Shown here: positions 35,356 through 46,133 of the stretch, one piece after another
Layout: every line of letters begins with the position of its first letter
Position numbering within the stretch: the first letter of the stretch is position 1
Assembly: GCA_965661285.1 (NCBI GenBank)
Contig: CBFIDD010000002.1
Location: 386,521 to 450,520, forward strand
Direction of reading: 5' to 3'
DNA from: Poseidonia sp.
Lineage (GTDB): Archaea > Thermoplasmatota > Poseidoniia > Poseidoniales > Poseidoniaceae
Length of the DNA stretch: 64,000 nt
Notes under the pieces: model-generated
Told to the model about the DNA's origin: nothing
Databases searched by the model: none
The model's input: the letters and a program-made list of their open reading frames with translations, nothing else
Program-made: the position numbers and the translations under genes

Positions 35356-35504
35356 CGGTTCGGTGTAGCCCGACACGGTGTTGCGTGCAACGCCATGGAG
35401 ATTGAGGGCCTTCAAACATTTCTCCGATTCTTCGAATGTTTTGTTTAACCTCGCCGTCGACCCTCCGCATCATCCTTTTGAACCCTAGCCGTGAAGTCGC
35501 TTTC

Positions 35505-38114
35505 ATGCCTCACATGGTTCATCCTCTTCTGAGCGATGACGTGGAAGCCAGGGGCTACCAACTGCGTTCCCTCGAACGCATTCTTTCCTTTTCGAGCCTC
35601 ATGGTCATGCCTACAGGGTTCGGCAAAACAGCCGTCGAATGGATGGCGATGGCTGAGTTTCTGAGGAAAGGGGCGACAAAAATCGTCCTTATCGCCCCCA
35701 CCACAGGATTGGTGGACCAACAACGCACCATGGCCGTTGAACGCCTTGCGTTGGACGAAGGCCAGATCGTGGCCTATACCGGCGATACCGGACCCGATAA
35801 ACGCGGCGCCCTGTGGGAGCGGGCCACGGTGGTGATGGCGACACCCCAGGTCATCCGAAACGATGCGATGAACGGCATCATTGACCTGACCGAGGTTGAC
35901 CTGCTCATCATGGACGAAGCCCATCACGCCACGGGGAATCACGCCTACGCACAGGTGGGGCAGTTGTACCTGCGCACCAATCCCAGCGGTCGCGTACTCG
36001 CCGCCACGGCAAGCCCGGGCTCGACCCTTCGCAACATCAACGAAGTGCGCACCAACCTCAACGCCCACAATCTCGATTTGTGCAAACGAGACGAACCGCT
36101 CCTGAAAGCCTACGACGTGGACATGAATATTCACACCCACACCGTGGACCTGCCCCGTGCTTTGGAGGTGCTGATCGCCCCCCTTCGCACGCATTTCAAA
36201 GATGAGGTGACCCATCTTCAGCGGCTCGGATTTATGCCAACCAAAGAATACATTGGCACCAATGATATTGAGCGAGCCCAGCAAAGTGCGAGTCGAGCCA
36301 TCCAACAACGGGATGTACGGGGATACGATGCAGCTCGCCGTGTTGCTGATTTACGGCGAATTCATATTCTCATCAACCTGCTTCAAACCCAGGGGACAAA
36401 CGTGGCAAGAGCTTTTCTCAACCGGGCCGAAGAGGAGGGGCGCAACGGTCGAAAGACGAATCGCATGTTGGCCTTGCCGGTCGTCCATCAACTTCGACTT
36501 GCCCTCAACGACATGGACGAACTGCATCCAAAATCCTCCATCGTCGAGACACTCGTAAGACAGGAGATTGCGACCAAGCCAGACGGGAAGGTATTGATTT
36601 TTACAGAGTACAGGGATTCCGTTGAACAGATCGTTGAACTCCTCAAGAAACACGAGAACCTGAAGCCGGATGCCTTCATTGGCCAATCCTCTCGAGGCTC
36701 TCAGAAAGGAATGACACAGAAACAACAACTCGCCCAACTCAAACGCTTTCGCAGTGGTGAAATCAACATCCTCGTCGCCACATCCGTCGGAGAGGAAGGC
36801 CTGGACGTTCCTGCAGCAGACCTTGTCGTGCTCTACGAACCCGTGCCCAGTGCGGTACGAGCCATTCAACGTCGAGGGCGCACCGCGCGACAGCGTGCGG
36901 GTTCAGTCCATGTCCTGATTGCGAAAAACACCCGAGACGCCTATGTTCACCGCGCATCCGAACGCCAAGAGGAAAACATGCATCGTCTGATGACGCGTCT
37001 TGTTCGCCAAAAACAGCTCAACGAAACCTACGTGGTGAGCGATGATGCCCTCGAAGCGTTCCGTGTCAAAACCGAGACAAAAACCGTGCCAGCCAAGGTG
37101 TTCCTCGAAGAGGAACTGAAGCGCCTTGCACCTCAGGAGACGCCCGAACGAAAATCTATAGAAAAAACACCAGCGGCTTCGAGACGGAACGATAATGTTG
37201 CCCCTCGCCTCCGACCCGACCAAATCCGACCGCAATCGCAAGCCAGTCTCTTTCACTATGACCAGCAGACCCCAACACCGGTTGAATCGAGCGCCATCCG
37301 GGAGGGTATGGAGGTTGTGCTCAACGCCGCAGAAGAGGAAATCAAGTCCCTCAGCGATGTTCGAGGAGACGGCGAAGTGGTGCTCATCGATCATCGTGAA
37401 TCACGGTCAACGCTGCCTGGATACCTCAACGGTCTCGGTTTCAAGACCACGTTTACCCAACTTCCGTGCGGCGACCTGCGGCTTTCCGAGCGGGTGCTCA
37501 TCGAACGTAAATCCGCCCGAGATTTGCTCGAATCCGTCAAGTCCGGTCGCCTGCTCAGCCAGTGCCGCAGCCTTGCGGCCAGCGCCCAACGTCCGCTCCT
37601 TCTCGTGGAAACTGGAGGGGAAGCACAGTACAGTGTCCATCCAAACGCCGTCCTCGGGGCGCTGGCGCACATCACGCTCGAACTGGGTCTCCCCGTGGTC
37701 ATGGTCAAAGGGCCGCTGGAGGCAGCCCATTTTGTTGCGGTCGCCGTCCGCCAAGAACACGAAGCACTGGAGCGACTGCATCAATTCGCTGCATCTTCAA
37801 GTGAGGACCATCCCGGTGTCCGACAGGCCATCGCCCGGGCACGGAGCGAACTTGACCTTCTTGAGGAGAGCCCCGACGATGAGCATCCTTGGTTCGATGA
37901 TCGCATTCAGCACCTTGAGCGATGTTTTGAGCACACGATGAGCCCGCTGCTGAACAAGGCACCTCACCTTTCCAACATCGTCATGAAGTTCTCACCGGAC
38001 ATTGGCCGCTTGTTCTCGACGACTGCAGAGAACATCGCCAAAGAAACGGGGTGTCGGGAGGAGGAAGCCAACGAGGTCCTGTCCTTGCTGCACGGAACGC
38101 TCACGAACCGATAA
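35505..38114 (+). CDS. hef: Hef helicase-nuclease (SF2 DEAH + ERCC4/XPF)
   Basis: PTGFGKT, DEAHH, TAS, ATSVGEEGLD, QRRGRTAR; ERKS..D nuclease motif. Confidence 0.94.
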   Translation: MPHMVHPLLSDDVEARGYQLRSLERILSFSSLMVMPTGFGKTAVEWMAMAEFLRKGATKIVLIAPTTGLVDQQRTMAVERLALDEGQIVAYTGDTGPDKRGALWERATVVMATPQVIRNDAMNGIIDLTEVDLLIMDEAHHATGNHAYAQVGQLYLRTNPSGRVLAATASPGSTLRNINEVRTNLNAHNLDLCKRDEPLLKAYDVDMNIHTHTVDLPRALEVLIAPLRTHFKDEVTHLQRLGFMPTKEYIGTNDIERAQQSASRAIQQRDVRGYDAARRVADLRRIHILINLLQTQGTNVARAFLNRAEEEGRNGRKTNRMLALPVVHQLRLALNDMDELHPKSSIVETLVRQEIATKPDGKVLIFTEYRDSVEQIVELLKKHENLKPDAFIGQSSRGSQKGMTQKQQLAQLKRFRSGEINILVATSVGEEGLDVPAADLVVLYEPVPSAVRAIQRRGRTARQRAGSVHVLIAKNTRDAYVHRASERQEENMHRLMTRLVRQKQLNETYVVSDDALEAFRVKTETKTVPAKVFLEEELKRLAPQETPERKSIEKTPAASRRNDNVAPRLRPDQIRPQSQASLFHYDQQTPTPVESSAIREGMEVVLNAAEEEIKSLSDVRGDGEVVLIDHRESRSTLPGYLNGLGFKTTFTQLPCGDLRLSERVLIERKSARDLLESVKSGRLLSQCRSLAASAQRPLLLVETGGEAQYSVHPNAVLGALAHITLELGLPVVMVKGPLEAAHFVAVAVRQEHEALERLHQFAASSSEDHPGVRQAIARARSELDLLEESPDDEHPWFDDRIQHLERCFEHTMSPLLNKAPHLSNIVMKFSPDIGRLFSTTAENIAKETGCREEEANEVLSLLHGTLTNR

Positions 38115-38958
38115 GGCGGACACGGGTTCGCAATTGAGCGAGACGGTCGGGATAGAAACCCAAAGCGAAAGCGACGATTTCTGAGAGGTGGCACACAGGG
38201 ACGGTGGTGTTCTTTCCGCTGACACGACCTGCTTTTGACTGATAGGAGTCGAGGTTGATGTGCGACATGGTGCAAGCACTGACCACGAGTTCAGCACCGG
38301 ACTGAATAGCATCGGAGAGCACCGCCGCAGTCATAGCGAGGGAGGAATCTTCCAGGGTGAGCATGGACGTTGAGCCGACGCTCTGGCATTTGGAGTCGTA
38401 GTCAACGGGGGTGCCGCCAAGCGCCTCGATGAGCTGCTCCATGTACGTGGGCAGGAAGGGGTCGTCGCCGGCACAGGCGCCCTCGCGCTGCATGTCGGGG
38501 CCGTAATAGGCGGCGATGTTCATCTTCAACGGATTCTTGACCGCATCTCGGACCTTATCGAGTCCTACTTCCTCAACGAGGTAGTGAAGCAGGTGCCACG
38601 ATTGCGTTTCTCCCGTGTATTCGACCTTCGAGGAGCGAGCCACAAGGTTGTTCACCGTGCTGGCATAAACAGGGTCTCGGGCCATGTCCTGAGCCGTGTT
38701 ACACATGATGGCGTGGCTGGTTGCACAGGTGGTCATCACGTCAAGGCCCTTGGCTTCGGCCAGTGCGAGATTGCGTGCGACCAGAGCGTCCTGGAGTTTG
38801 GGAGTGGCCTGCTTAATGACGTTGCCACCGTCGCTGCTGGCCCGTGGGATTTCAACGAGTTGAATGTTCAAGGCCTTGCAAAGCGGTTGGATGGTGTCCT
38901 CAATTTCCGCAGCACCTGCACGGGCCACGTTGCCGGGGTAGTATGCGATTTTTGCCAT
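38101..38958 (-). CDS. HdrB/SdhE-like CCG-domain protein, Cys motifs degenerate
   Basis: YYPG, ARNLALAE, AAYYG, P..ME.L..ALG.TPVDY and H.NLD.YQ scaffold; no CCG motif. Confidence 0.8.
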   Translation of the reverse strand: MAKIAYYPGNVARAGAAEIEDTIQPLCKALNIQLVEIPRASSDGGNVIKQATPKLQDALVARNLALAEAKGLDVMTTCATSHAIMCNTAQDMARDPVYASTVNNLVARSSKVEYTGETQSWHLLHYLVEEVGLDKVRDAVKNPLKMNIAAYYGPDMQREGACAGDDPFLPTYMEQLIEALGGTPVDYDSKCQSVGSTSMLTLEDSSLAMTAAVLSDAIQSGAELVVSACTMSHINLDSYQSKAGRVSGKNTTVPVCHLSEIVAFALGFYPDRLAQLRTRVRLIGS

Positions 38959-38967
38959 CCAATCACC

Positions 38968-40932
38968 TCAGAACCTTTGGTCGATTTCGTTGAACAGGCT
39001 CACGACTTCGTGGTAGTTTTGCACGCGGCCATTAAACATCTTGGGAATTCGACCCAAGCCGGCAGGCGGAACGAGCAAGGCCTGCAAGCCTCGAATTGGT
39101 GGGCCACCGTTGCGAGTAAACGCCAGCGCCATTCGTGCTGAGACGCCACTGAACACGTTGCTCACCAGTCCGAGCGGACCGAGAACTTGGCGGTAGAGGG
39201 TGGTCTCGTTGACGTTGCCCGACCACTTCACGCTGCGGCCATACCACTTGACGAGTCGACCGGATTTTCCGGCGTAGCGGTTCTGGTTCAGCAGAGCGCC
39301 GCGTGCTTCGTTAAGGGCACGTGCCGCTAAGCGACCGTCTTCACCGTAGCGAATCAAGCTGGCGTGGTCGGCTTCGGACCAGACACCGTCCTTTTGCTGA
39401 AGGGAGGTCATGATGGAACGGCGTTGCTTCTCGGAGGTTCGTGGGTCAAGGGCTCGGAGCCATTGTTGGAAGTGCACACCTGGACCCTCGTAGTGCGGGT
39501 CGTGAGGAAGGGTGTCGGACATGGCTTGGATGAGTTGGAACGAAAGAACATCTCCGGCTTGATGCAGGGCTGTGGCTGAGGCCGAGTCCATGGTGCCCAT
39601 CGGCATGCCGGAGGGAAGGGTTTCGCCTTCTCGAGGGTCAGTACGCATCCAAGGTTCTGCACGGCTGCGGTGGCTCTCATAGCGAGAGGTGTCGACGATC
39701 AGGTCTCGGATCACGGGATGACCGGGAAGGGGTTCAATACGAACCCGTCCACCGTCCTGGGCCACCGTTCCAATTTGGGTGCAGTCGGACAACACAATGC
39801 GCCCGTTCACACGAACACCGGTCGTCGGCGTGCCAGCAGCACCGCCTCGGCGGAACGCAAGGCTTCCATCGACCTCTCGTTGCATGGTGATGAGGAGGTC
39901 TTGGACCGTGGCGTGGCCGGGAACGGCACAGGTCAAGGTGTCCCATCCCGATTCGGCAGCCTGTGGGCAATAACGGAAAATCTCCAGCGTGATGGTCAAT
40001 TCGTCCTTCTCGATGATGCCCGGTGCAAAGTCGCCCTCGATAACATCGTCATCATCGCCAGCACCGTAGGCCTTCATCTCTTCAAGGAGCTCAACTTGGA
40101 GCGTGCCAGATTCGTCAACGCAGGCAAGGAGCGGCAGCGCCTCTTCAACCCAAATCTTCCAGGGAGGTTCAAAGTCAACGTCGCATTCCTGGATTGGGAA
40201 GGCTTCGGTACCGCCCAAGGCAGCGAGTTTGTTGTTCCAGTCATGACCTGCCTTGCAGTATTCATCGTACGAGGTGTCGCCGATGGCGCAGACGGAGTAG
40301 TGCACACCGCCCAAAGCAGGGCCGTTGGCGTTGATGGCGTTCCACATGGCGTCGGCGTTGTCGGGCATCTCGCCTTCACCCCAGGTGGAGGTGATGATCA
40401 TCACGCGCTTCATGGTGGCCAGACGAGCGGGGTCAAAGCCGTCCATGTCGACGATGTTGGGTTCCAAGCCGTAGTTGGCGGCCATTTTCGCCGTCTTTTC
40501 TGCAAGTCCGGCAGCGTTGCCTGTTTGGGAGCCGAACAGAATGTTCAGCGAGCGATCACCGGCAAAGACGGCGTTGAGGGCATCGGAGACACCGGCTGCG
40601 GGGGCCACAGCGGCCGCAGGTGCAGCGGCTTCAACGGCTGCAGGTGCAGCCTCAACCACCTCTTCAGCGGCACCGTCGCCAACCAATTCAAACTTGATGA
40701 CTTCCACAGGGCAGGCTTCCGCTGCCTCGATGATGATGTCGCCGAGTTCCGTTCCCAGGTCGCCAACCAACGGCGCCCCTCCGACGTTCCGGTCGAAGTT
40801 TCCGTCCGTACGGACGGCCGCCAGAATCATCGACGAATCGTCGGTGACCTCGAAGACTTCGGGACAGATATCCTGACAGGCGTCACAGGTGATACAATCT
40901 TCGTCAATCCACACTTTTGCAACGACTGCCAT
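38968..40932 (-). CDS. ferredoxin-flavodoxin-SdhB-like fusion protein
   Basis: CITCDACQDICP...EACP; ILFGSQTGNA, STWGEGEMPDNA, GDTSY; DGSLAFRR, IEPLPGHPVIRDLIVD, GVW. Confidence 0.85.
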   Translation of the reverse strand: MAVVAKVWIDEDCITCDACQDICPEVFEVTDDSSMILAAVRTDGNFDRNVGGAPLVGDLGTELGDIIIEAAEACPVEVIKFELVGDGAAEEVVEAAPAAVEAAAPAAAVAPAAGVSDALNAVFAGDRSLNILFGSQTGNAAGLAEKTAKMAANYGLEPNIVDMDGFDPARLATMKRVMIITSTWGEGEMPDNADAMWNAINANGPALGGVHYSVCAIGDTSYDEYCKAGHDWNNKLAALGGTEAFPIQECDVDFEPPWKIWVEEALPLLACVDESGTLQVELLEEMKAYGAGDDDDVIEGDFAPGIIEKDELTITLEIFRYCPQAAESGWDTLTCAVPGHATVQDLLITMQREVDGSLAFRRGGAAGTPTTGVRVNGRIVLSDCTQIGTVAQDGGRVRIEPLPGHPVIRDLIVDTSRYESHRSRAEPWMRTDPREGETLPSGMPMGTMDSASATALHQAGDVLSFQLIQAMSDTLPHDPHYEGPGVHFQQWLRALDPRTSEKQRRSIMTSLQQKDGVWSEADHASLIRYGEDGRLAARALNEARGALLNQNRYAGKSGRLVKWYGRSVKWSGNVNETTLYRQVLGPLGLVSNVFSGVSARMALAFTRNGGPPIRGLQALLVPPAGLGRIPKMFNGRVQNYHEVVSLFNEIDQRF

Positions 40933-42773: not shown

Positions 42774-45700
42774 TCACTGTTGGTTTTGGTCCAACCATTG
42801 CTGACCGTAGTGCTTCCATTGCTCCATCGTCCAGCCCGCGGGAAGGCCACCGTCTGGAAGGGGTGGCGTCGAGTCTTGAGTGACCGGAGCGGCTGGAGCT
42901 GGTGCTGCGGCTGGAGCGGGGGTCGGCATGGAGGCAGGAATGGAAGGGGCGGCAGCTACAGCACCGTATGTGGCCGAAAGACTGTCTTCGTAGCCTTCCT
43001 CTCCCCAGTTGGCGTATTCATCCTCTTCCTCTTCCGTACGGAGAATGGAAAGGAGCACGACAACGCCACCGACGATGATGAGAAGGAAGACGCCCCACAT
43101 GGCAACGGCTTCAACCGGGAAGCCGGCGTCAGCATCTTCGCCACCGTTGGCGCTGGCTGTATCCATGCGCACCAAGGTGACCTCCAGCATGGCGTTAGCT
43201 GCGTCGCTGACCGTTTCAGAGCGAGCCCACACCGTTACGTTGACCGTCAACGTGTCATCGTTGAGGTTCTTGAGGGTCGTTTCGGAGACGTCGACGGTGA
43301 GGGTGATTTCTTTGGTTTCTCCCGTGGCCAAGGTGAAGTCCTTGTCCAAACGAGCGATGGAGGTCTGGAACCATGCGTTGGACTCGCTGGCGTCGAGGTC
43401 CATGACCACTCGCTGTCCGGTGGTGTATTGGTTGACGATACGGACGTTCACATCGTAATCGCCTTCTTCAGAGATTTCCAGCGGTTGGATGGCAAAGATT
43501 CGCAACCAATCTTGTGAGCCGACGAGGTACGTGGCCTGACCCGTTGCACTGATGCTGCTGTCGGCCAGACTGGTAGCGATGACCTTCAAATTGAGGCTGC
43601 CTTCTGTACCCTCGATGAACGAAAATTCAACCGAAACGTTGTAGCTCGCACCGGTTTCAATTTCGGGCGTGTTTCCATCGATGAGGTTGGTGAACGCGGC
43701 GTTCATGCCCAGCGGAATGTTGAGCGCCATTGAGAAACTGTCCGGGTTGTTCCCGTCGTTGCGAACTTCAAAGGACATGGTTTGGGGCAGGTCGCCGGGG
43801 ATGTAGGATTGACCGGTCTCCTCATCAGACACGAACACGGCTGCCGTCTCCTGAATCTCGATGATCAGTTCCACCGAGTCGAACACAGAAGCGTCGTCGA
43901 CGCTGGTTGCGGTGATGGTGACCGAGTAGTAGCCCGGGCTCAAGCCGATGGGCATGGCCAGTTGGACAACAACGGTTGATTCTCCATCCCAGGCGTCGAG
44001 GACCGGCGATTGGTCGGCCGCCAACGAGGCTTGCAAACGCCAGTTGCTCTGGCCGAGGTTGAGGTTGTACTGTTCGTCATCGTTGCCGAGATTGTACAGG
44101 TTGAGGTACATGGATTTCGAGATACCGTTGGCGGCGCCGCTGAAGGTGTTCTCTTCAGCCACCAAGTCTACTTCGCGAAGCACAGGAACCTCAACGTTTC
44201 GAACCAGTACGTCGGTTCCAAACAAGGCGGTGCTGCAGGAGGGACATGTGGCACGAAGGTTCCAACTGACGTATGGGTTTGCCTCGGTTCCCAACGCTGG
44301 CGAGGCGTCGTCGGGGGCGGTGATGTTCAGAACAAGGTCAACACGCTCGCCTTTGAGGAGTGTGATTGGGTTTTGTTTGATCGTACCGACTTCGTCTTCC
44401 ACAAGCGCACTCCAGCCAGTGTTTTCTGAAAACGACGTGGCGAGGTTAAATGCTGCATCCTTGTTTCCTGTGTTTTGCAAGCGGAAATTGACCTGACCAG
44501 ATTCGCTAGGCGTGATCGAAGCGGAAATCAATGGCACGGTTGATGTCAAGGCGACGCTAAATTGCTCGCTGACAGCGAGGTCCATGCCGAGCCTCGCCTT
44601 CTCACCGAGTTGAGCGCTGCTTGCGTCGGTGAGCCAAAGGTTCCAATTCTGCTGCTGAACATCAGCGCCAGCTGGAACCGTCAAATTGGCCCAGAACTCG
44701 ATGGTCTTACCAGCACCCAGCGGCGGGATGATGACGTTCGTGCCGTGGTTGTTGCTGCCTTCAATGTCCATTCGGATGACGGGGAAGGGCGCCATCCAGG
44801 AATCGTTGGTGACGTTCGTTTGAAGACGAATGGTCGCAGGGGCATAGCCGTTGTTGGTCAAAGTACAGTAGAGCGTCACGAGTTGGTTTGGGGCCGCAGT
44901 ATAACCGTTCAGCGGGTTATCGCATGCCATGTCAACGGTATAGTCGGTGACTCGACTGACGCCAAAGTGCACGAAGTCATCCACATGGAATCCTTCGCTG
45001 GCGACACTGCTGTCTGAGGTGAAGAGTATGCTGAAGGTGTATGAACTGCCGCCGAGGAAAACATCAGGGTTTGCGAGATCCGGTATTTGTTCCCAGGTGT
45101 CTTGTGGATCCCATGAGAGGTTGGTCCACTGGCCCGGTGCGGCACTCGGGTTGCCTTGGGAAATATCCCACGAGATGGATTCAAACGCATCGTTGAGGTT
45201 TCCCGAGCCGCGCCAGAGTTCCATTGAAACGGAGTCGCCAGCAGCCATGCTGCCCCATGCCTGAAGGTGGAACTGGCTGGAGACAAACTCGTTGGAGTAA
45301 AAGAGCATGCGGCAAATGTACACGCCGTAGACGTTCTGCGTCAAACCGGTGTCGGGTGCGTCGGTGCCGCAAGAGTTGCCGGTCATTTGCCGACCGTAAA
45401 CCAAGCGAGTTGCTTCTGCATTCGACGGGTAATTGCTGCCAGGAGCGGAATGACGCCAGTGGACGTTACCCGCTGCACTCGAGGTCGAATCGGTTTCCCA
45501 AGAACCGGCAGTGGTGGCGTCACCGCCATCAGCGGGGTACTTTCCGGTGAAGAATTGAGGACTTGCTCCCGCAACGGTGGCTTCCATGGCGTTGGCCGCA
45601 ACAGCGACGGGGACGACCTTCTCAAGCTCATCATTTCCGTTGCGATCGTCATCTGCAAAATTCACCGTAGCCCGGACGATGAGGCCGCCTGAGAGGTCGT

Positions 45701-46133
45701 TGGTCGACGTGCTAAGGATGGAGTGTGCCGCAGTTGGCGTCCACTGTATGATTTGGTTGTAGGATTGACCACCCGTGAGCGGGGTCGTTGTAAAATCAAA
45801 GGATTCCATGACAAACCCGATCGGGTGGACGATGTCGACCGAAACAGGTGTCTCATCGCCAATTCCAGATGCGCCGAATCGCTGAACTGTAATTGTGACA
45901 TCGATGGCTTGATCCATGAAGATGTAATCGATAACGCTGCCATCGGACTGAACCCACTGATCAGCAGGGACGGTGGCGTTGCCCAAAACGACGGTCTTGA
46001 CCGCAAAGTCGTCGTTGGTTCCGCCCCGTCCTGAGGCGGCTTGCGCAGGAACGACGAAGTTCATGGCGAGGGTTTGCATCAAGAGCAGCACAACAATGGT
46101 GAAGGGCATCATTCGGCGCATGGACATCAGCAC
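42774..46133 (-). CDS. large secreted/cell-surface protein with repeated Ig-like domains, C-terminal TM and PPLP..GWTMEQW tail
   Basis: Signal peptide; repeated N.GN..D...L motifs; TM near the C-terminus. Confidence 0.8.

Follow-up and report, generated by a model that had tools for sequence, protein, structure and literature searches.

A probable order-wide derivative of the SdhB/SdhE pair in Poseidoniales with a cysteine-depleted SdhB-like domain fused to ferredoxin and flavodoxin domains

SdhB, the iron-sulfur subunit of complex II, is among the most conserved iron-sulfur proteins, and its eleven or twelve cysteine ligands are normally taken as defining. A 64,000-nucleotide stretch of DNA from Poseidonia sp. 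(GenBank assembly GCA_965661285.1, contig CBFIDD010000002.1, positions 386,521 to 450,520 of the forward strand; hereafter the window) contains a gene for a 654-amino acid protein in which a ferredoxin (Fd), a flavodoxin (Fld) and an SdhB-like domain without cluster ligands follow one another, and, directly behind it, a gene for a 285-amino acid partner related to HdrB and SdhE. This pair is an undescribed, order-wide and strongly selected derivative of an SdhB/SdhE (HdrC/HdrB-like) pair. It belongs to Marine Group II, the order Poseidoniales, which comprises abundant, uncultured ocean archaea whose energy metabolism is known from annotation only. A full-text literature search, supplements excluded, returned no description of a cluster-less SdhB or of an Fd/Fld-SdhB fusion. 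In the consulted portion of Pereira et al. 2019 (PMC6741140), the pair appears beside the thermosome gene in a synteny figure, under automatic names and with no analysis; the consulted sections of Tully 2019 (PMC6336850) deal with canonical complex II only, and the excerpts of PMC11237513 and PMC13096325 contain no account of the pair.

Described relatives and architecture of the pair

The closest described system is formed by SdhB and SdhE of the type-E succinate:quinone oxidoreductases (SQR) and of methylmenaquinol:fumarate reductase (MFR), which are represented in NCBIfam by NF042952 (MFR_FeS_SdhB) and NF042965 (MFR_anch_SdhE). The window pair shares with it the gene order, an SdhB-like gene followed by an HdrB/SdhE-like gene, as well as both SdhB domains, the C-terminal extension of long SdhBs and a partner that is homologous over its full length. 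Unlike the type-E and MFR proteins, however, the window pair lacks the SdhB ligands, keeps two of the ten CCG cysteines and has no adjacent sdhA, and its first gene carries an N-terminal fusion of Fd and Fld, possesses a family-specific insert and scores far below the NCBIfam cut-offs. The second relative is the HdrB-HdrC pair (5odc, 8rvu, 7bkb), in which the cysteines of HdrB bind non-cubane clusters. The partner matches the solved HdrB chains, and the predicted heterodimer sets the helical, two-cluster-like domain and the tail on the HdrB-like protein in the same manner as HdrC sits on HdrB. In contrast to HdrB, however, most cluster cysteines of the partner are replaced, and there are no HdrA or Mvh genes near the pair in the loci examined. 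A profile of the SdhB-like part searched against solved structures matched no HdrC chain at E 0.01 or better and returned classical SdhB/FrdB alone; a likeness of the C-terminal half to HdrC was therefore dropped. The thiol:fumarate reductase subunit TfrB (NF004898), a fusion of SdhB and an HdrB-like protein, contains the same two blocks in the same order, and it matches weakly (residues 334-434, E 3.9e-8, 32 bits against a cut-off of 385); in the window, however, each block has a gene of its own, the clusters have been lost and a neighboring TfrA-like gene is missing.

The Fld part resembles the flavin mononucleotide (FMN) domain of CysJ (TIGR01931), with window residues 126-270 lying on profile positions 58-203 of 597 and the FMN loops being intact. 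Since the window gene has no flavin adenine dinucleotide (FAD)/NADPH-binding domain and reaches 118.1 bits against a cut-off of 668, the names 'CysJ' and 'sulfite reductase' are wrong; in some databases, the gene is labeled 'flavodoxin domain-containing protein' or 'sulfite reductase NADPH flavoprotein alpha'. Mislabels of this kind (flavodoxin, CysJ/sulfite reductase, succinate dehydrogenase subunit, HdrB) can distort metabolic reconstructions of Marine Group II.

The 654-amino acid protein is composed, in this order, of Fd, a linker, Fld, a second linker, the cluster-less SdhB-like domain and a C-terminal extension. The parts of the locus, with the predicted local distance difference test (pLDDT) values of the models where these define a part, are:

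38968..40932, minus strand: Fd-Fld-SdhB-like gene, 654 amino acids, ATG start, no internal stop (open reading frame (ORF), Pfam, NCBIfam)
40681..40932, minus strand: ferredoxin domain, residues 1-84 (Fer4_13, invariant cysteines, pLDDT 76-88)
40585..40680, minus strand: linker rich in Ala, Pro, Glu and Val, residues ~85-116 (pLDDT <50 at 85-114)
40063..40584, minus strand: flavodoxin (FMN) domain and following helix, residues 117-290 (Flavodoxin_1, invariant FMN loops, pLDDT 80-93)
40003..40062, minus strand: second linker, acidic, residues ~291-310 (pLDDT <50 at 293-308)
39679..40002, minus strand: SdhB N-terminal domain (beta-grasp, 2Fe-2S-type) without its four cysteine ligands, residues 311-418 (Fer2_3)
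39277..39678, minus strand: SdhB C-terminal helical (two-cluster ferredoxin-like) domain without its eight cysteine ligands, residues 419-552 (NCBIfam, Foldseek, column table)
38971..39276, minus strand: C-terminal extension, residues 553-654 (alignments, BLASTP, predicted interface)
38959..38967, minus strand: intergenic spacer of 9 nucleotides between the SdhB-like and HdrB-like genes (coordinates)
38101..38958, minus strand: HdrB/SdhE-like partner, 285 amino acids, two degenerate CCG domains (TIGR03288, MFR SdhE, profile, motif table)

The two N-terminal domains have kept their cofactor motifs. Fer4_13 matches residues 9-80 with 40.2 bits (cut-off 24.5), and the Fd ligands of the CxxCxxC...CP type, Cys13, Cys16, Cys19 and Cys74, are invariant in 16 sequences of the Fd-Fld type, a pattern consistent with one [4Fe-4S] or [3Fe-4S] cluster. 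The Flavodoxin_1 (PF00258) match covers residues 131-253 and scores 93 bits against a cut-off of 25. In the same 16 sequences, the phosphate loop GSQTGN and the two isoalloxazine loops, STWGEGE and GD..Y, are conserved without exception (G134, S135, Q136, G138, N139, S182-E188, G218, D219 and Y222). With these motifs intact, the carrier domains are predicted to bind the Fd cluster and FMN. For both Flavodoxin_1 and Fer4_13, the window gene is the sole match in the genome, and because it contains the only flavodoxin domain found there, its product is probably a node of low-potential electron flow in this uncultured group. The first linker, with 18 Ala among the 47 residues 82-128, differs in both sequence and length among orthologues. 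A full-length model, calculated from an alignment of 16 sequences, contains confident Fd (1-84) and Fld (117-290) domains with pLDDT <50 between them and the neighboring domain (85-114 and 293-308), and since the linkers are predicted to be disordered, the carriers seem to be tethered to the rest of the protein.

Residues 311-552 are recognizably, if distantly, SdhB. Fer2_3, the Pfam model of the SdhB N-terminal domain, matches residues 315-418 with 47.1 bits (cut-off 27), and the NCBIfam SdhB models PRK05950 (E 1.2e-18) and TIGR00384 (E 8.2e-16) span residues 313-518, though with scores under the curated cut-offs (67.1 bits against 228 and 58.1 against 88, respectively); for comparison, the canonical SdhB of the genome reaches 151 bits by TIGR00384. 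With phmmer, E. coli SdhB was matched among solved structures (E 1.5e-11). Residues 300-654 were modeled with AlphaFold2 from an alignment of 23 family members that contained no canonical SdhB; the model has a mean pLDDT of 62.7, with values of ~85-90 in the N-terminal domain, 60-84 in the helical domain and <50 in the last 100 residues. When this model was compared with the Protein Data Bank by Foldseek, the first 32 listed rows were SdhB/FrdB chains (E 3e-13 to 3e-8, template modeling score by target 0.62-0.79, ~250 aligned columns). Behind these chains in the list comes 3kwl (E 2e-5), a hypothetical Helicobacter pylori protein of 498 residues. An earlier note on this DNA, made from the letters alone, had read the gene as an Fd-Fld module docked by an SdhB fold that has lost its cysteines; the exact frame 38968..40932 and all motifs quoted there are found in the translation, and the structural comparison bears out the fold. 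In place of the docking proposed there, the evidence supports tethering: intact modules are fused to the SdhB-like domain by linkers predicted to be disordered.

The C-terminal extension is the most conserved part of the protein. It is also present in long canonical SdhBs (~320-330 amino acids) and contains an insert specific to this family (GFTRxGG...PPAGxGKxP).

The partner matches TIGR03288 (HdrB) at E 1.7e-37 over residues 3-275 (129.3 bits, cut-off 345), NF042965 at E 1.4e-32 over its full length (113.4 bits, cut-off 500) and Pfam CCG (PF02754) with 21.2 bits against a cut-off of 20.6, no single stretch passing alone. When solved structures were searched with a profile of 21 partner orthologues, HdrB chains aligned along ~270 residues, nearly the full length, with E-values between 1.4e-50 and 7.4e-35. 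Neither of the two proteins contains a transmembrane helix by the measure of a 19-residue window with a Kyte-Doolittle mean of at least 1.6: their maxima are 1.39 and 1.27, against 1.95 for a membrane protein encoded beside canonical sdhA. The pair may still bind membranes peripherally.

Loss of cluster ligands, selection and distribution

The cysteine ligands were compared in an alignment of 21 orthologues from three families and four canonical SdhBs (three long ones from related archaea and the genome's own), in which ligand columns were defined as the 12 columns with Cys in at least three of the four canonical rows. Cys occupies 3 of 252 orthologue cells at these columns, compared with 47 of 48 in the canonical SdhBs, a loss far beyond chance. 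The [2Fe-2S] ligand columns hold G364, T368, T371 and D383 in the window protein, with Cys in 2 of 84 orthologue cells; the eight columns of the [4Fe-4S] and [3Fe-4S]/[4Fe-4S] clusters hold V462, F465, I468, S472, E520, H523, L526 and G530, with Cys in 1 of 168. Ser472 and Glu520 are invariant replacements at former ligand columns in all 21 orthologues, and Asp522 is invariant as well. The same Cys-less pattern is found in representatives from a library of 1.84 billion proteins, and since orthologues and library representatives share it, the loss is old and fixed and does not reflect local decay.

The degenerate SdhB-like domain is under purifying selection. By the Nei-Gojobori method, the ratio of nonsynonymous to synonymous substitution rates (dN/dS) between the window gene and 11 congeners is about 0.01-0.12 in the three SdhB-like segments and as low as in the Fd and Fld domains; dS exceeds 1 in this comparison and is thus saturated, which leaves the direction of the result unchanged. 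Residues 300-654 were also used as a query against 151 genomes of Poseidoniales, with a match defined as E 1e-20 or better. The SdhB-like gene is present in 150 of them, including 58/58 high-quality genomes and 22/22 genera (74/74, 2/2 and 73/74 genomes by family); the one genome without a match is 85% complete. Genomes nearly always yield a single match, two fragmented assemblies with two matches each being the exceptions, and none of the listed matches contains an internal stop. Among 201 sampled genomes of the phylum, 36 belong to the order, and each of these scores at least 245 bits. The 10 matches in other genomes reach at most 62 bits, the level of canonical SdhB; within this sample, the pair was not found outside Poseidoniales, and two genomes of the same class from another order gave no match. 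The two genes are thus single-copy core genes of the order.

These results leave practically no room for a pseudogene or an artefact of assembly or annotation. Only the missing cysteines would point that way, whereas the frames are intact across the order (150/151 genomes), dN/dS is far below 1 and one DNA run contains the whole stretch in a single contig with 14 differences; order-wide presence and dN/dS refute this explanation. In line with the earlier note's proposal of a scaffold that had kept its fold after losing its iron, the cysteine motifs are absent from orthologues of three families, selection is purifying in spite of the saturated dS, and a canonical sdhA-sdhB set (618 and 256 amino acids, the latter with all Cys motifs) exists in the same genome on another contig.

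Ligand loss has proceeded differently in the partner. Canonical SdhE of related archaea contains two C...CCG...CxxC motifs with ten cysteines, of which the window partner retains two, Cys78 and Cys229. The second motif is degenerate in 21/21 orthologues (YYGP / SVG / SAC..SH). The first is complete in two sequences (G001 of family f2 and G117 of genus g19), partial in 12 (the other genomes of family f3) and gone in seven (family f1, with the window sequence among them). A maximum-likelihood tree with midpoint root and three canonical SdhEs as outgroup has the two sequences with a complete first motif branching first (supports 100/100 and 97/85); shared Cys columns, 5 of 286, could draw them slightly toward the outgroup. 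Among the 21 orthologues, 58 columns are invariant, including the two former ligand cysteines and an adjacent histidine; Cys78, Cys229, His233, His122 and His125 belong to this set. Caught at three stages of ligand loss, the partner offers a natural series for the dismantling of an electron wire with fold and interface kept.

Two further long frames with CCG domains are found in the genome, one of 941 amino acids (G000:C2:328464-329030) and one of 699 (G000:C1:200560-201189), scoring 61 and 55 bits; as these score well, the genome keeps Cys-bearing CCG proteins beside the degenerate partner.

Origin, predicted complex and possible function

Three genomes from another family of the phylum (G210, G173 and G296) contain sdhA, a long sdhB (327-332 amino acids, all Cys) and sdhE (10/10 CCG Cys) in a row. 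The SdhB-like part of the window protein matches these long SdhBs with 71-80 bits by BLASTP over residues 15-337 of 355, the extension included, and the partner matches their SdhEs with 34% identity and 150-160 bits. On the strength of both alignments, a type-E-like pair of long sdhB and sdhE is the most likely ancestor. The ligands would have been lost stepwise, with all SdhB clusters and the second CCG site disappearing before the order radiated and the first CCG site, which two of the 21 orthologues preserve complete and 12 in part while seven have lost it, disappearing later.

A heterodimer of the two proteins is well supported by modeling. Residues 300-654 and the partner, each supplied as a family alignment, were predicted as a complex in three runs, all of which gave an interface score (ipSAE) of 0.87, compared with 0.01 for the best control; the mark applied is reached by 116 of 157 solved complexes and by 2 of 215 mismatched pairs. 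The runs share at least 75% of contacts, and the pLDDT of the partner is at least 87. On the SdhB-like chain, the predicted interface comprises residues 473-481 at the end of former cluster 2, residues 518-530 in the former cluster-3 motif and most of the C-terminal extension, and on the partner it comprises both former CCG regions (38-55, 153-159 and 191-209). Independent support for binding comes from tight gene spacing: the genes are separated by 6-15 nucleotides or overlap by 1-4 in 20 of 21 loci (the window and 19 of 20 others), the odd one being L030, where the ORF start is over-called.

The N-terminal modules vary. By motif patterns rather than profile searches of each sequence, the 21 orthologues were assigned to Fd-Fld (12), Fld-Fld (4), Fld (3), Fd (1) and Fd-Fd (1); the same five types occur among the library representatives, and genus g2 holds both Fd-Fld and Fld-Fld. 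Because module types vary by lineage, the scaffold seems to be what selection keeps constant, and the carrier seems to be of a generic kind. The degeneracy of the partner, the predicted pairing, the order-wide range and the variability of the carriers are additions to what the earlier note contained.

Taken as a whole, the reading that we favor, to which we give an even chance, is that the pair forms a cluster-less heterodimeric scaffold derived from a type-E SdhB/SdhE pair, with redox cofactors only on the tethered carriers. Its structural part is very probably correct; the C-terminal extension and the former cluster-2 and cluster-3 sites would pack on the former CCG sites of the partner. Its mechanistic part is tentative, and we would sooner expect it to need revision than to hold. 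According to it, the heterodimer core might no longer conduct electrons and might instead serve as a scaffold or docking platform, while the tethered Fd and Fld domains would act as swinging one-electron carriers that do all the redox work. They could pick up low-potential electrons, for instance from 2-oxoacid:ferredoxin oxidoreductase, of which a signature (POR_N) is matched in the genome, and hand them to a partner or substrate bound to the scaffold, for which the old HdrB/SdhE pocket, a quinone or a membrane complex are candidates. The scaffold would thus set the location and perhaps the acceptor, and the Fd/Fld arms would shuttle electrons one at a time. A module of the Fld-only or Fld-Fld type would be devoid of iron-sulfur clusters altogether. 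The pair thereby lets one ask whether mobile Fld/Fd domains can replace a fixed wire.

We also considered a wider version, which we regard as quite unlikely: a complex-II-like core would have been rebuilt without its iron-sulfur wire, swinging Fld/Fd domains would replace the fixed clusters and bring low-potential electrons, for example from 2-oxoacid:ferredoxin oxidoreductases, to the SdhE/HdrB pocket or a membrane partner such as a complex I devoid of NuoF, and the Fld-only forms would be adapted to iron-poor surface seawater. The genome, which is 93% complete, contains a match to complex-I NuoD and none to NuoF (Complex1_51K), so that the electron-input module of complex I is not evident.

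Several observations weigh against the favored scaffold with tethered carriers. Folded alone, the C-terminal extension, which would make much of the contact, is predicted with low confidence (pLDDT <50). As HdrB-HdrC complexes have been solved, the ipSAE value may reflect likeness to them and not binding of this particular copy. Small free ferredoxin-like frames (Fer4_7, Fer2) are encoded elsewhere in the genome, and the tethered Fd is hence not its only carrier. An RNA library containing 5% of the sampled words yields two contigs, one of 218 nucleotides inside the gene (39144-39361, 5 differences) and one at the thermosome end; since such a library may contain DNA, neither counts as a sign of expression, nor do the uncovered parts speak against it. 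Gene context was rejected as a functional clue, because the entire region, made up of housekeeping genes, keeps its gene order throughout Poseidoniales: an S-layer-like gene, the thermosome gene, the pair, Hef and the genes for ribosomal proteins L3/L4/L2/S19/L22 follow in 20/20 loci, and the neighbors therefore say nothing about function. Finally, Cys78, Cys229, His233, His122 and His125 of the partner, together with Glu520 and Asp522 of the SdhB-like chain, could form a site of their own for a metal, a thiol or a substrate, and the core may therefore be more than a scaffold.

This last point leads to the main rival, which we hold to be possible but unlikely, namely that the core is still an enzyme whose old HdrB/SdhE pocket binds a quinone, a disulfide or another small molecule that is reduced directly by FMN or the Fd cluster. 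The pair would then be a ferredoxin/flavodoxin-dependent reductase with Cys78, Cys229, His233, His122/125, Tyr239, Gln240 and Lys242 as pocket residues. The 58 invariant partner columns with the two former ligand cysteines and the adjacent histidine speak for such an activity, as does the fact that FMN domains of the CysJ type pass electrons directly to partner sites. Moreover, the two early-branching lineages with a complete first CCG motif probably keep a cluster there, which suggests that, at the time the carriers were gained, electrons ended up in this pocket. However, the first His of HLLH as well as YQ.KA and LD.YQ are also conserved in canonical SdhE, where they may be structural, and the gene context points to no substrate.

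A different rival would make the pair a non-catalytic relic with a structural or regulatory role, for example an accessory subunit or a redox sensor in which the state of Fd/Fld controls what the scaffold binds. Although all ancestral catalytic wiring is gone, conservation is highest in the C-terminal extension, which is surface-forming, and dead enzymes act as accessory subunits in respiratory complexes of other organisms. The carriers, however, are hard to reconcile with a relic: at least one Fd or Fld is present in 21/21 orthologues, and because they are always there and their cofactor motifs are invariant, real electron transfer is indicated. We consider this role very improbable.

Canonical complex II, a divergent SdhA-like protein and neighboring genes

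Canonical SdhB (TIGR00384 above cut-off) is present in 147/151 genomes of the order, the four misses being 81-86% complete. Upstream of the pair lies a gene for a thermosome subunit and no sdhA, which is likewise the case in 20/20 further loci. Three members of the SdhA family are encoded in the genome: canonical SdhA, NadB (TIGR00551 above cut-off) and a divergent protein. The latter is a 582-amino acid ORF with Met44 as likely start, located outside the window (L049:1498-3246, minus strand, which corresponds to G000:C4:84102-85847). It evolves fast and is order-wide, with matches at E 1e-40 or better in 36/36 sampled genomes of the order; its orthologues score 244-855 bits, compared with 109 for the genome's SdhA and 77 for NadB. 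Missing from its sequence are the His for covalent FAD attachment, the catalytic loop TEGxRGEGG, the Arg of the NRL motif and part of the capping region. At 15 other loci, many of them cut short, the same neighbors recur, namely a HIT protein at 14 loci, an uncharacterized protein of ~500 amino acids with a hydrophobic N-terminus at 13 and an acyltransferase at 11. The divergent protein could be another 'dead' component of complex II or, alternatively, a lipid-metabolic enzyme.

These flavoproteins bear on a further alternative, which takes up the iron-sparing solution raised in the earlier note and according to which the window protein is a low-iron SdhB that docks on SdhA or on the divergent SdhA-like protein, the tethered Fld/Fd replacing the three-cluster wire under iron scarcity. 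Habitat labels indicate seawater, iron-free Fld-only forms exist, the N-terminal SdhB domain shows good conservation and is modeled with confidence, and a divergent SdhA-family flavoprotein is at hand in all 36 sampled genomes. Nothing has been replaced at the gene level, however, as canonical SdhB is kept in 147/151 genomes. In known complexes, the [2Fe-2S] ligand loops adjoin the flavoprotein; in this family, the corresponding loops vary in sequence and length and are modeled with lower confidence. By their redox potentials, low-potential Fd/Fld carriers are ill-suited to succinate oxidation, and the divergent SdhA-like gene, whose product has lost the catalytic residues listed above, occupies a conserved cluster of its own. 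Taken together, this alternative is very unlikely. A bolder extension of the wider, rebuilt-complex-II version, in which the divergent SdhA-like protein would be the third subunit of the same remodeled complex, is less likely again; as a third degenerate subunit of the pair, the protein was set aside in view of its own conserved cluster.

Directly upstream of canonical sdhA-sdhB lies a gene for a hydrophobic protein of 272 amino acids (L008:5710-6528, plus strand, G000:C1) with a Kyte-Doolittle maximum of 1.95 and no Pfam match. No classical SdhC or SdhD was seen beside canonical sdhA-sdhB, and the 272-amino acid protein may be an unrecognized anchor of canonical complex II.

In the window, a gene for a Hef-type helicase/ERCC4 nuclease (35436-38114, plus strand) is convergent with the HdrB-like gene, the 3' ends of both ORFs overlapping by 14 nucleotides. 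On the other side, positions 42774-46133 of the minus strand encode a protein of 1119 amino acids that is rich in Thr, Ser and Asn, contains a hydrophobic stretch near its C-terminus and has a weak Ig-like Pfam match. It is syntenic across the order and diverges fast, with 26-56% identity compared with 74-91% for the adjoining thermosome subunit, and it may be a surface (S-layer-like) protein.

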